A stretch of DNA of 64,000 nt from a virus. Below are positions 34,007 to 37,002 of this stretch, piece after piece. Position numbers and translations under genes: made by a program. Under the pieces are notes generated by a model. It was not told the DNA's origin. It saw only the letters and a program-made list of their open reading frames with translations, and made no database searches. Every line of letters begins with the position of its first letter. The first letter of the stretch is position 1. The stretch lies in IMG/VR virus record IMGVR_UViG_3300044856_000216, positions 127,916 to 191,915 of that record. The stretch is one strand, 5' to 3'.

Positions 34007-34612
34007 TTATAATATGATCTTTACAATCTTCCCAATAATTCTATAATTATTGTCATAAATATATCTATCTTCATGTGAAAATTCTCTATTTAAGGATTTA
34101 AACCATATATGGTCAGATTGTTGATTGTATTGTTTACATATTACGTCTCCGTTTATTTCAGCAATGACATTTTGACCATCTAACTCATATGGATCGAATT
34201 TTGTATCTAGTAAAACAACGCTATCGTCTGGAATTGTGTCTTCCATGCTTTTTCCTTTTATATGAATACCAAAAACAGCATTGTCAGGAATATAATCGGT
34301 AATAATATCTTCTATTTCAAAATCTCCATCTCTACCTATCATGCCTGCACCTGCGGCTGCTTGTTGATCGTATACTGGAAATCTATAGATATTCTGTATA
34401 TTCATAGATTTTATGTTTGTCCTATCTAGTAAATAATCAACAGAACAATTAAAGTAAGAAGCAATTTTACAAAGTGCTTCTGCATTAGGGGTGGACTTTT
34501 TACTAGGGTTTAACCAATCTGATATATTTCCAGTAGAAATATTTGTAGCTTTTGAAAGTCTTGCGCTTTCTCCTCTTTTATTTAATAGACTTTTTAAATG
34601 AATAAGTTCCAT
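34007..34612 (-). CDS. CI/LexA-like repressor (XRE HTH plus S24 peptidase domain)
   Basis: N-terminal HTH ESARLSKATNISTGNISDW. C-terminal GKSMEDTIPDDSVVLLD (Ser nucleophile) and VICKQY (Lys). Confidence 0.8.
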   Translation of the reverse strand: MELIHLKSLLNKRGESARLSKATNISTGNISDWLNPSKKSTPNAEALCKIASYFNCSVDYLLDRTNIKSMNIQNIYRFPVYDQQAAAGAGMIGRDGDFEIEDIITDYIPDNAVFGIHIKGKSMEDTIPDDSVVLLDTKFDPYELDGQNVIAEINGDVICKQYNQQSDHIWFKSLNREFSHEDRYIYDNNYRIIGKIVKIIL

Positions 34613-34668
34613 ATAATTACCTCTCTTCTACATAATTTACCATATTTTTCCAATATAATAAAGCTATA

Positions 34669-34728
34669 TTGACATTTTCGTGTATGCGAGTTATTATATT
34701 AACACTCGTTTATGCGAGATTTTATATT
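34669..34728 (+). promoter_or_regulatory. rightward sigma-A-type promoter overlapped by two direct operator-like repeats
   Basis: TTGACA (34669-34674), 17-nt spacer, TATTAT (34692-34697). Repeats CGTGTATGCGAGTTATTATATT (34679-34700) and CGTTTATGCGAGATTTTATATT (34707-34728) match at 19 of 22 positions. Confidence 0.6.
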
Positions 34729-34791
34729 GCAAACATAAGTTCTCGTTGTCGAGAATGGTTCAATTTGGTAAAATGAAAGGAGATTTTTGTT

Positions 34792-37002
34792 ATGAGAGGC
34801 GGATTAATATTGGATATGGAAAATAAAAATGCTTTAATAACGAACGCAATGCTTACTGTGTACATAGATGAAAAAAATATGGATTACACGAAAATGCTTA
34901 TGCCATTTATTGAAGCAACAATATATGATTTAAAATATTCTGTAGGCGATAATCTGTCCGTAAATACTATCAAAGAAAAGACGAACTCTGAATACGGATT
35001 GGATTTAAAAGATAAAGTAGTTGAAAAAATTTTATATAAGCTTTATAAAGATAAAAATGGTGCAATTTTAAAATATACATATCGAAATAAAAGCAAATTG
35101 TATACTTTATTAAAAGTACCAGATGTAAAAAAGTTTAAACAAGTAAAATCAAATATGACAGATGTTGTAAAATCTGTAATATTAGAATTTGTAACTTATT
35201 ATAATAACGAACACATTGTTAAAAAAATTGATTATAATAAAGGACAAATAATTTTTGTTGACTTTTTAAATAAATATAATTTTGAAATTTACAATGATAT
35301 CAATGCAACAAACAATATCATGATAAATGAACATGTTGCTTCTGATATGTATTATGTTGCAAAATTTATTATTGAGGAACATAATAAGAAACATAATCAT
35401 CAAGAAAATTGTTATAACAAGCTTTTAATGTTGCAGGAGGGTTATTTTGCACAAAATGCAATTTACTATTTCATGAATGGAGAAATAGAAGCAACTCCAA
35501 GCAGAAAGCTTAGTAATGTGTATTTTGTGTTAGACACACGAATATTAATCGATGTTTTGGGATTGAATTATGCAGTGGATGCGGATTCAATGGCAGAGTT
35601 ATTAGAACTAATAAAAAGAAATGATGGGCATTTATGTACATATGAATATTACATGAATGAATTAAAAGGTATTATAGACAAATATGTCCTTGATTATGAC
35701 TCAAGAATATATTTAGATCTCGCAAAATTTAGAGATAGTAAAATGTCTGATACTCAAATAAGAGTATATAATTTAAGCCTTAAAGATAAACTTGAAGATA
35801 AAGAAGTAACAATATTATCTCCTCAAGAATATGACAATATGGTATCAAGTCAAAACTGGCATATTGATTATGCAGCTTTAGAAGATGATATATTAAAAAG
35901 TGTAGAATATCAGAACAAAAGAGAAGATATTGGATTTATTAATGATTTCGAAACACTACATGCAATGTCATATCTGAGAACAACAAATAAAAAGAATATT
36001 TATGTATTCGTTTCATCAAATTTTGATCTTGTTAAAGTTGCAGATAGATTATTGAATCGTGAAAAGTTAAAACATACAGATTTTGGTTTAGCAATATCAG
36101 ATATCGACCTGACAACCTTACTTTGGTTGTATAACCATAATGACAAACCAAATTTACCATCTTTAACATTATTAGAAAATGCTTACGCTGCTATTGTACC
36201 AGATAAACGTATTTTAAATAAAGTTATAAATGTAATAAATGAAAAAGTACAAAGTAATGATAAAACTGTAAAAGAAATGGCTCTTACTTTAAGATACAGT
36301 GAGTATTTATTATCTGGTATATCAGAAGTAGTTAAAAATGACACAAATAACGTTTCGCCAGACATAGTTGATAATTTAAGTAATCATGTTAAAAATGAAA
36401 TTAGAAAAGAGCTTGCTCCGCAAATACGTAAAAAGATTATAGATGAAGAATATGAAAGTATTCATGAAGAACAAAGTCAAAAGGTTATTAGCGAAATTAA
36501 CGGAGAAATTGACAGTTTAAGAAAAGAACTTGAAGAAAAGAATAAAGAAAATGTTTATCAAAAGCAAGAATTAGATAAACGTGAACAGCAATTATTAAAA
36601 AGGGATTCTGATATGTCTCAAAAAGTAGACAGAGTTACAGAAGAAAGAAATAATTATTTTTCTGAAATTGAACGACTGCGTAAAATAGAACATGACAAAA
36701 TTAATTCAAAAGCATTTTACATTTCTAATGGTTTTATGTGGATAGTACGAATAATTTCGTTTATGTTTATAATGTATGCAATTCTTACAACAGGATATAA
36801 TTGTTTCCAGTCATTTATGTCAGGAGAAAAAATAATAGATAGCCTGATTAATAATATTGGTACTATTATAACATATATACCATTACCATCTATTATTTTT
36901 GGATTTTCAAGAAAAGTGCAAAAGATTGTTTATGATCGTTTACAGCATTTTTTATTGAGAAAATCAGAAGTGTTAAATCAATCCAACAAAGACACCCAGT
37001 AA
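34792..37002 (+). CDS. 736-aa protein with a PIN-like motif, a coiled coil and C-terminal TM segments (abortive-infection or exclusion candidate)
   Basis: AAAGGAG SD. VYFVLDTRILIDVLG and YVFVSSNFDLVKV resemble PIN strands. Coiled coil at about aa 560-640. Hydrophobic segments FMWIVRIISFMFIMYAILTTGY and IGTIITYIPLPSIIFGF. Confidence 0.6.
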   Translation: MRGGLILDMENKNALITNAMLTVYIDEKNMDYTKMLMPFIEATIYDLKYSVGDNLSVNTIKEKTNSEYGLDLKDKVVEKILYKLYKDKNGAILKYTYRNKSKLYTLLKVPDVKKFKQVKSNMTDVVKSVILEFVTYYNNEHIVKKIDYNKGQIIFVDFLNKYNFEIYNDINATNNIMINEHVASDMYYVAKFIIEEHNKKHNHQENCYNKLLMLQEGYFAQNAIYYFMNGEIEATPSRKLSNVYFVLDTRILIDVLGLNYAVDADSMAELLELIKRNDGHLCTYEYYMNELKGIIDKYVLDYDSRIYLDLAKFRDSKMSDTQIRVYNLSLKDKLEDKEVTILSPQEYDNMVSSQNWHIDYAALEDDILKSVEYQNKREDIGFINDFETLHAMSYLRTTNKKNIYVFVSSNFDLVKVADRLLNREKLKHTDFGLAISDIDLTTLLWLYNHNDKPNLPSLTLLENAYAAIVPDKRILNKVINVINEKVQSNDKTVKEMALTLRYSEYLLSGISEVVKNDTNNVSPDIVDNLSNHVKNEIRKELAPQIRKKIIDEEYESIHEEQSQKVISEINGEIDSLRKELEEKNKENVYQKQELDKREQQLLKRDSDMSQKVDRVTEERNNYFSEIERLRKIEHDKINSKAFYISNGFMWIVRIISFMFIMYAILTTGYNCFQSFMSGEKIIDSLINNIGTIITYIPLPSIIFGFSRKVQKIVYDRLQHFLLRKSEVLNQSNKDTQ

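Follow-up and report, generated by a model that had tools for sequence, protein, structure and literature searches.

A LexA/CI-type repressor gene and a divergent gene for a predicted membrane-anchored PIN-like protein form an optional cargo cassette within a phage tape-measure gene

The stretch of viral DNA analysed here, hereafter the window, comprises 64,000 nucleotides (positions 127,916 to 191,915) of the IMG/VR record IMGVR_UViG_3300044856_000216. Between positions 34007 and 37002 it carries two divergently transcribed genes, one for a LexA/CI-type repressor and one for a 736-residue protein referred to below as the effector; together with the region between them they form the cassette described in this report. 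Both open reading frames (ORFs) lie exactly where an earlier reading of the bare sequence, the original prediction, had placed them. Pfam, PHROG and motif analysis were used for the repressor, and AlphaFold2, Foldseek and hydropathy for the effector, which matched no family library. The features of the cassette are as follows.

34007-34612, minus strand: LexA/CI-type repressor, 201 residues
34424-34597, minus strand: helix-turn-helix (HTH) domain of the repressor, residues 6-63
34022-34378, minus strand: S24 autoprotease domain of the repressor, residues 79-197
34669-34697, plus strand: distal sigma-A-type promoter TTGACA-17-TATTAT, directed toward the 736-residue gene, 11/12 match
34678-34700: operator repeat 1, with dyad core TCGTGTATGCGAG (34678-34690) in the promoter spacer and its remainder overlapping the -10 element
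34706-34728: operator repeat 2, with dyad core TCGTTTATGCGAG (34706-34718) over the expected transcription start region
34746-34774, plus strand: proximal promoter-like element TTGTCG-17-(TG)GTAAAAT, abutting the Shine-Dalgarno sequence
34792-37002, plus strand: effector, 736 residues
34816-35121: winged-helix-like N-terminus of the effector, approximately residues 9-106, helices and then a beta hairpin (AlphaFold2)
Up to residue 230: long helices (AlphaFold2)
35509-36099: PIN-like alpha/beta domain, approximately residues 240-436
Residues 437-525: helical domain (bundle)
36364-36711: coiled coil
Residues 525-583 and 591-675: two very long helices (AlphaFold2)
36718-36906: C-terminal two-helix membrane hairpin

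Judged by its domains and motifs, the repressor is a complete LexA/CI-type HTH-S24 protein. It matched the Pfam model Peptidase_S24 over its full length (E 5e-18, model positions 1-116 of 116), the Cro/C1-type HTH models HTH_26 (E 1.6e-6) and HTH_3, and the PHROG family phrog_4, 'transcriptional repressor' (E 9e-34). The translation reads G-K-S122-M and C-K160-Q, and the intact S24 Ser/Lys dyad of the original prediction was thereby placed at Ser122 and Lys160. The sequence AAAGAG at residues 84-89 provides an Ala-Gly cleavage site (86-89) at LexA-like spacing. The protein is predicted to undergo RecA-stimulated self-cleavage and to bind the operators, which were recognised from the repeats and from comparison between loci.

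The region between the two genes had been proposed to contain a promoter pointing at the large ORF, with a duplicated operator lying over its spacer, -10 element and start region, and both were recovered. The direct repeat measured 23 nucleotides with 20 of 23 positions identical, essentially the same as the 22 nucleotides and 19 of 22 first described, and its copies are 28 nucleotides apart. Copy 1 takes up the spacer and -10 element of the promoter, and copy 2 covers the expected start. A repeat of this quality was found in none of 1000 shuffles of the intergenic region. The 13-mer TCGTKTATGCGAG occurs twice between the genes, 28 nucleotides apart, and the exact core TCGTNTATGCGAG, expected 0.003 times in the 64-kb window, was seen twice, only at this locus. 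Each operator copy holds the dyad TCG-N6-CGA, extended to CTCG-N6-CGAG in copy 2, a form typical of a site for an HTH dimer.

Nearer to the effector gene lies a non-coding block of approximately 55 nucleotides (window 34735-34790), whose conservation extends to effectors sharing as little as 34% identity. TTGTCA-17-TGGTAGAAT and a tandem GTAGAAT-N3-GTAGAAT lie within it, and in the window it overlaps the perfect palindrome TTCTCGTTGTCGAGAA (34740-34755). The proximal block, ...ACATAnGTTCTnATTGTC-N17-TGGTAGAAT, follows the operators on the side of the gene, and every member of the clade described below retains it, with or without CI. It may act as a promoter, but its -10 element lies very near the Shine-Dalgarno sequence.

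Searches of Pfam, PHROGs, NCBIfam and PADLOC with the effector gave no significant match, only coiled-coil noise, and its fold was modelled with AlphaFold2 from an alignment of relatives. The model of the effector had a predicted local distance difference test score (pLDDT) of 80.5, and that of the domain at residues 232-525 a pLDDT of 84.5. When the domain was compared with the PDB using Foldseek, all matches of low root-mean-square deviation (rmsd) were PIN proteins (probability 0.97-1.0, target-normalised TM score 0.5-0.65). They included the HARP RNase P (7og5_A, TM score 0.65, probability 1.0), VapC2 (3zvk, 0.58-0.63), PAE0151 (2fe1, 0.62) and a chain of an M. tuberculosis toxin-antitoxin complex (7vwo, 0.62), and the PIN domain of SMG6 (2hww) was among the well-superposed matches. 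Against viral models (BFVD), the top match was a 'PIN like domain' protein (E 8.7e-4, probability 1.0). Tyrosyl-tRNA synthetase, which dominated the Foldseek listing for the whole protein, was discarded as spurious (rmsd 13-19 Å, target-normalised TM score 0.2-0.3). The AlphaFold and Foldseek check for a PIN fold that had been suggested therefore returned confident models whose low-rmsd matches were all PIN nucleases.

A word-indexed search yielded 29 full-length relatives, in the alignment of which G217, D248, E290, I294, D385, N410, L440, W445, L460, A467 and P470 were invariant. Among 34 representatives that are 18-35% identical, G217, D248, E290, D385, F406, N410 and W445 were invariant. 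In the model, D248 and the following Thr end strand 1, E290 lies in the helix after strand 2, D385 starts a helix, and the motif [ST]-x-N410 follows strand 4; judged against the Pfam PIN consensus, these would be the positions of a PIN active site. Three positions of the four-acidic PIN signature (D, E, D, D) would accordingly be filled by the invariant D248, E290 and D385, and the fourth by N410 in [ST]xN. Invariance of these residues in a family otherwise 18-35% identical is the pattern expected of a working active site. On the model, the central domain appears PIN-like by fold and motif, not by sequence profiles. The fold and the DT motif of the PIN-like segment first proposed thus stood, together with the invariant D248, E290, D385 and N410; the aspartate of its 'NFD' motif is not conserved, whereas N410 is.

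The remainder of the protein fits the long coiled coil that had been described, with helices at residues 525-583 and 591-675. Two hydrophobic segments emerged from hydropathy analysis, a strong one at 647-665 and a weaker one at approximately 685-705, and two C-terminal hydrophobic segments were present in 132/161 full-length relatives. The two segments suggest a two-helix hairpin anchor, which would leave the N-terminal 640 residues in the cytoplasm. A C-terminal anchor of two or three transmembrane helices had been expected; the anchor is retained, with two helices and not three.

The same domain could instead be a degenerate, non-catalytic PIN-like fold, and the effector a membrane sensor, scaffold or pore-former that damages the membrane through its two-helix hairpin, like the transmembrane effectors of CBASS or AbiZ-like proteins. 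By E-value the fold matches are weak, Asn replaces the fourth acidic residue, one relative had a faint PADLOC match to '2TM effector', and the defence system DS-34, considered below, joins a CI-like protein with a coiled-coil, transmembrane AbiZ-like effector. D248, E290, D385 and N410 are nevertheless invariant across the divergent family, and the protein has just two short hydrophobic helices. We regard a non-catalytic role as improbable.

Co-occurrence of the two genes was assessed in relatives of the effector. Seven lineages of a Firmicutes/phage clade, namely the window and the loci L012, L011, L079, L080, L081 and L083/84, have a divergent HTH-S24 gene immediately ahead of the effector. 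S24 repressors were seen only in this phage-type clade and not elsewhere in the family, and within the clade they are absent from the close relatives L001, L009, L082, L015 and L013. The seven paired effectors are 34-63% identical, with the window and L012 at 99%. All seven paired repressors keep the GxSM motif, the Lys and the A-G site. The repressors are mosaic, with HTH and S24 halves swapped: L081 and L083 have effectors 59% identical and repressors 34% identical, and the S24 halves of the L011 and L083 repressors are 63% identical with effectors at 37%. Co-phylogeny of repressor and effector, looked for across these pairs, was not seen.

A promoter-like site scoring at least 10/12 was directed toward the effector in six of the seven CI-bearing loci (none at this level in L081). 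In five of the six loci other than the window, the sites score 10-12/12 and occupy the same position. A lineage-specific dyad lies inside the spacer in five loci, and in L012, which retains operator copy 2 only, it lies just downstream of the -10 element. The dyads outside the window are listed below.

L011, in the spacer: TCGTATATACGA
L079, in the spacer: TCATATAATATGA
L080, in the spacer: CTCGATTATTTGAG
L083, three sites 31 nucleotides apart: CAATTnnnAATTG
L012, just downstream of the -10 element: CTCGTATATGCGAG

In L013, where the effector is 94% identical and the repressor has been lost, neither the distal promoter nor the operator is present. That the effector is repeatedly associated with interchangeable repressors, all predicted to be cleavable and each with matching operators on the effector promoter, speaks well on comparative grounds for repression and for selection to keep the repressor cleavable. 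The two genes do co-occur, as had been anticipated, in seven lineages of the clade; they are not an obligate pair, since the effector mostly stands alone and four to five close relatives lack the repressor. By sequence comparison, the S24 repressor is a clade-specific add-on to a mostly stand-alone effector family.

Further observations were made at individual loci of the clade. The repressor slot of L013 (3877-5778) holds a 545-residue ORF and a 54-residue Phd/YefM-like ORF (Pfam E 2e-4), divergent from the effector. A family-wide divergent regulator was considered and rejected: nine of ten upstream minus-strand ORFs had no regulator-type Pfam domain, and the tenth was this weak Phd/YefM-like ORF. 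In L014 (1-6080), an effector gene 99% identical to that of the window is cut at approximately residue 323 by foreign-looking DNA ending in a tyrosine integrase gene, the cause being either insertion of an element there or a chimeric assembly.

When the domain alignment was used in an exhaustive profile search, 3,506 clusters (50% identity) were returned at E ≤1e-3, and 1,300 of them reached E ≤1e-30. Among the best 150 of the 3,506 clusters, most proteins are 600-750 residues long, with the domain at approximately 210-510. The source names of the relatives are 'hypothetical protein', and ten family representatives gave no convincing match to Pfam, PADLOC or NCBIfam. The profile searches point to a very large, unnamed family that is absent from the libraries searched (Pfam, NCBIfam, PHROG and PADLOC v2). 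Among cultured phages, no match was obtained by megablast of the locus or by tblastn of the effector.

A genome scan made with the Proteobacteria-type subgroup of the family returned 57 loci, spread patchily across many phyla: Paenibacillus, Clostridium baratii, Chloroflexota, Actinomycetota, several Proteobacteria, Nitrospira, Bdellovibrionales, Flavobacteriales, Patescibacteria and others. Copies were found on plasmids of Enterococcus faecium, Klebsiella, Pantoea, Listeria and Arthrobacter, some of them between insertion sequence (IS) elements. ORFs were then called in approximately 55 non-redundant loci, among which there was no universal or conserved partner gene, most members standing alone. 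The commonest neighbour was HsdS, directly upstream on the same strand in six loci (gaps of -20 to +131 nucleotides); HsdR lay directly downstream in two loci, and HsdM or a type I methylase two genes upstream in four. The order hsdM-hsdS-X-hsdR of some relatives is the arrangement of prrC. Other relatives adjoin a complete type I-B CRISPR-Cas locus, a FokI-type restriction system, and a DUF262 gene with a type I methylase; further neighbours were DUF4411, PIN_8, AbiEii-type ATPases, integrases and a relaxase. The overall genomic company of the family is defence genes and mobile elements.

These loci bear on whether the cassette is an addiction or toxin-antitoxin module, in which the repressor would hold toxin synthesis down and loss of the element would allow the toxin to be made and the cell to be killed. 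PIN domains are the classic VapC toxins, the tight divergent pair has autoregulatory-looking operators, family members occur on plasmids, and a Phd/YefM-like small ORF replaces the repressor in L013. VapBC modules are recognised by a small co-transcribed antitoxin gene, and the effector has no conserved partner of any kind in the approximately 55 loci. Once made, the protein cannot be neutralised by a repressor whose only action is on transcription, and 736 residues with a membrane anchor and a coiled coil are unlike type II toxins. We give an addiction module little credence.

The window is part of a large tailed gut phage of low GC content (approximately 32%), known from metagenome and viral-contig collections. 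It encodes a terminase and a portal protein, and contains four tRNA genes and two tyrosine-recombinase-like genes (676-3670, 1012-2046 and 63297-63989), from which the phage is probably temperate. A 21-nucleotide motif from the border of the island that bears the cassette was used to retrieve 39 related viral contigs of 15-185 kb. The island and its surroundings in the window are as follows.

25549-29892: N-terminal half of the tape-measure ORF, phrog_4211 profile positions 560-936
29893-37657: accessory-gene island, 7.7 kb, bearing the cassette, between the two tape-measure halves
31205-32203: DUF262/GmrSD_N gene, PADLOC NsnA-like, E 1e-31
37029-37589: double Zn-ribbon protein, 186 residues, divergent from the C-terminal half of the tape measure, with C-terminal motif CPxCGS...GK.W.C..CG..W
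37658-42814: C-terminal half of the tape-measure ORF, 1718 residues, phrog_4211 profile positions 925-2244

The two giant ORFs on either side of the island are consecutive parts of one tape-measure profile (phrog_4211), and the earlier statement that the cassette lies inside a phage tail gene was correct in substance. Wherever the stored stretch of the 39 related contigs extends far enough, they share a layout, with both tape-measure halves present in nine: the N-terminal half, a conserved non-coding element, a DUF262/GmrSD_N gene, variable cargo, a divergent Zn-ribbon gene and the C-terminal half. The repressor-effector pair is one cargo variant among these contigs; in L105 and L124, which share a 94%-identical DUF262 gene, other genes take the place of the cassette. 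Since it is present in some and absent from others of these near-identical phage backbones, the cassette is accessory and its repressor is not the master switch of the phage. The cassette is optional cargo of a hotspot, conserved in this phage group, that splits the tape-measure gene.

This arrangement weighs on two further explanations. The first is that the repressor is the main immunity repressor of the phage and the locus an unusual lysogeny switch, for which a complete CI-type protein, duplicated operators and the tyrosine-recombinase-like genes of a probably temperate phage might be cited. A lambda-like switch has a divergent Cro-type gene and operators shared by two early promoters, whereas the partner here is the 736-residue gene, and no Cro-like small ORF lies opposite the repressor in the 179-nucleotide gap. 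The operator occurs nowhere else in the 64 kb, phages of the same backbone lack the repressor gene, and the repressor gene travels with the effector into unrelated contigs. The absence of a Cro-like gene and the view that this is not a normal lysogeny switch, both part of the original prediction, are thus upheld, and we consider the main-repressor explanation very improbable.

The second is that the nuclease serves the phage as an induction or lysis helper, through decay of host RNA or DNA, control of lysis timing or a block to superinfection during the lytic cycle, and is not a defence of the lysogen. SOS-type control would act at the time of prophage induction, late tail genes of the same strand surround the cassette, the effector has a membrane hairpin and an amphipathic C-terminus, and lambda-type exclusion genes are likewise prophage cargo. 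Most relatives, however, are in chromosomes or plasmids with no phage around them, often in type I restriction operons; the sister phages do without the cassette; and no holin, spanin or endolysin family was matched in Pfam or PHROG. A role in induction or lysis is unlikely on this evidence, though we would place it somewhat ahead of the other alternatives.

The cassette was compared with known systems. In the literature searched, coverage of which was incomplete, this architecture was not found described, and the opinion that it is not a described system also agrees with the lack of a convincing PADLOC match and of detectable homology to DS-3 (see below). The best structural matches, the VapC and HARP PIN nucleases, share with the effector the alpha/beta/alpha fold, the Asp-Thr that ends strand 1 and the order D/E/D/[ST]x(D/N). 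The effector differs from them in having no sequence-profile match, an insertion of approximately 90 residues between the second and third catalytic positions, Asn at the fourth position, a domain set within a 736-residue membrane protein, and no antitoxin.

SNIPE is a nuclease bound to the membrane, one that cuts phage DNA as it is injected and whose tether protects the host genome; it combines DUF4041 and GIY-YIG domains with an N-terminal single-pass anchor, and is encoded by a single gene of a widespread family (PMC13190303). The effector would follow the same logic, with a nuclease and a nucleic-acid-binding domain placed at the inner membrane by a single gene of a widespread family. In contrast to SNIPE, it has a winged-helix-like head, a PIN-like domain and a C-terminal hairpin in place of N-terminal targeting; the DUF4041 and GIY-YIG Pfam domains are absent, and there is no sequence similarity. 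The likeness is purely one of analogy.

Among the validated DefensePredictor defence systems, DS-3 (one gene) and DS-5 (two genes) need PIN catalytic residues, and DS-34 consists of a 'phage repressor protein CI' and an AbiZ-like coiled-coil, transmembrane protein (PMC13092281). DS-3 (340 residues, WP_022645725.1) was rejected as a homologue of the effector, with an hhalign probability of 0.35 and only the DTxxL motif aligned, and DS-5, made of two soluble proteins, was ruled out by size and architecture. DS-34 resembles the cassette in pairing a CI-like protein with a coiled-coil membrane protein; its genes are co-directional, however, and its effector is DUF6161 and not PIN.

Two further likenesses concern position and regulation. 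The anticodon nuclease gene prrC lies between hsdS and hsdR in type I operons, and in a subset of the effector family the gene sits in the same place, whereas the window copy is outside any restriction operon and the effector has neither an ABC-ATPase nor a PrrC nuclease domain. In CapH/CapP and in LexA/CI regulons, a repressor destroyed after DNA damage sits on an immune promoter, as is proposed here; the CapH repressor and the CapP protease would be replaced in the cassette by one S24 protein that is predicted to cleave itself. By this comparison the cassette belongs to none of the SNIPE, CapH/CapP and prrC families, which it resembles in logic, regulation and position, respectively. It appears to be of a known kind, nuclease effectors under damage-responsive control, and what appears new is an undescribed effector family.

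The reading that we favour, and whose chances we put at about even, is that the cassette encodes a DNA-damage-inducible, membrane-tethered PIN-type nuclease acting as a defence or exclusion effector under a LexA/CI-type repressor. All four of the alternatives above were rated below it. The reading starts from what is seen at the locus and in its relatives: how the genes are built, the recurrent operator and promoter architecture, the class of fold, the catalytic-type residues that are conserved, the membrane anchor and the neighbouring genes. From these we infer repression, RecA-dependent cleavage, nuclease activity, a substrate and a role in defence, which may be connected as follows. In a lysogen, the repressor on its dyad operators would hold the strong effector promoter shut. 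DNA damage, or single-stranded DNA arising from infection or induction, would activate RecA, which would stimulate self-cleavage of the repressor at the Ala-Gly site through Ser122 and Lys160, and more effector would be made. Its nucleic-acid-binding winged-helix-like head, PIN-like metal-dependent nuclease, helical domain and coiled-coil stalk would be held at the cytoplasmic face of the membrane by the C-terminal hairpin. The tethered nuclease would then cut nucleic acid, RNA being the likelier substrate than DNA by its fold, and a competing phage would be excluded or infection aborted. Most members of the family lack a repressor, and their expression is presumably tolerated; the tether, auto-inhibition or both, and not repression alone, would probably protect the host.

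Several results weigh against this reading. No PIN sequence model in Pfam or NCBIfam matched the window effector or ten relatives, sequence and profile searches of the PDB gave only coiled-coil noise, and the Foldseek E-values against the PDB were approximately 1e-2. The fourth catalytic position is an invariant Asn and not Asp. In PADLOC-DB v2 the effector matched only LeoBC, through its coiled-coil region (E 3.4e-5), and none of the matches of ten relatives was convincing. As to control, the repressor is missing from most of the family and from four to five close relatives, so that tolerance of the effector does not depend on it; no convincing minus-strand promoter of the repressor gene itself was found; and the proximal element may give basal, repressor-independent expression. 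As that element is kept in all members of the clade, CI may modulate expression without fully silencing it. As to defence, linkage to type I restriction was seen in only approximately 12-15% of the sampled loci, and many loci have ordinary housekeeping chromosomal neighbours. The findings that the original prediction had named as fatal to it were not encountered: a nuclease fold was predicted, the two genes co-occur, and no known virion or lysis family was matched.

Additional features of the island and its phage were recorded. The phage is possibly a relative of the SPbeta-like phages: L012 encodes a YomU-type tube protein, and the tape-measure proteins of Brevibacillus phage Sundance and Bacillus phage FADO resemble that of this phage. 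The last approximately 25 residues of the N-terminal half are not conserved, and the ATG of the C-terminal half (37658) is preceded by no Shine-Dalgarno sequence (window 37590-37660), as is also the case in L012. A programmed frameshift at TTTAAAA at the end of the N-terminal half was rejected because the reading frame does not fit, and no convincing direct repeats that might serve as att sites were found at the island borders. Joining of the halves at the RNA level is one possibility for the expression of the 1718-residue C-terminal half.

The conserved non-coding element is a structured RNA candidate of approximately 450 nucleotides (window 29791-30260), which begins in the last codons of the N-terminal half (TTTAAAAATGTCGG). 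It was also found at approximately 7400-7900 in L012, at approximately 1380-1850 in L013 and in L086-L124, and is conserved in the 39 related contigs. Across 12 non-redundant sequences, 48 predicted pairs were 97.9% paired, against 28-46% when the partner was slid; compensatory changes occurred at 17 pairs against 1-4 in the slid controls, and the fold z-score was -3.0. A search of Rfam matched no family. A group I or group II intron was not supported: Rfam gave no match, GUGYG is absent, and the P1-like helix lacks a U-G pair; the candidate may be intron-like or a riboregulator. The DUF262/GmrSD_N gene lies downstream of it in most related contigs that reach that far, and may form a functional unit with the RNA or be a separate defence gene.

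Beside the DUF262 gene is a 231-residue ORF (window 32342-33037) with no family match; its start is 100% identical in L115, and sister phages have other small ORFs there. The otherwise non-coding segment 33038-34006 contains two strong terminator-like hairpins, and window 33205-33385 on the minus strand gave a sub-threshold Rfam match to the Bacteroides small RNA BTnc231 (37.5 bits, the gathering score being 80.4). The Zn-ribbon gene was rejected as a functional partner of the effector, as its presence in sister phages without the effector marks it as a backbone gene.

A broader proposal, which we advance tentatively and hold to be the less probable side of the question, is that the effectors form a new immune family of single proteins, widely distributed over many phyla (at least 3,500 clusters at 50% identity), in which a PIN-type nuclease is kept harmless by a coiled-coil membrane tether and either targets nucleic acid as it enters at the membrane or is a guard that an attack on a linked type I restriction system would release. 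Its phage clade would have recruited self-cleaving repressors repeatedly and independently, and so become DNA-damage-inducible. None of the Pfam, NCBIfam, PHROG and PADLOC (v2) models applied here picks up the family, and a profile built from the present alignments would annotate thousands of 'hypothetical proteins', among them some on plasmids of Enterococcus, Klebsiella and Pantoea. If these proteins are defence effectors, a large, cross-phylum and unannotated group would join the bacterial immune repertoire. They would also offer a second case, unrelated to SNIPE, of a nuclease aimed by membrane tethering, and the phage clade would show clearly how an immune gene can come under a RecA-responsive switch made of one protein, its regulators being exchanged like cassettes.

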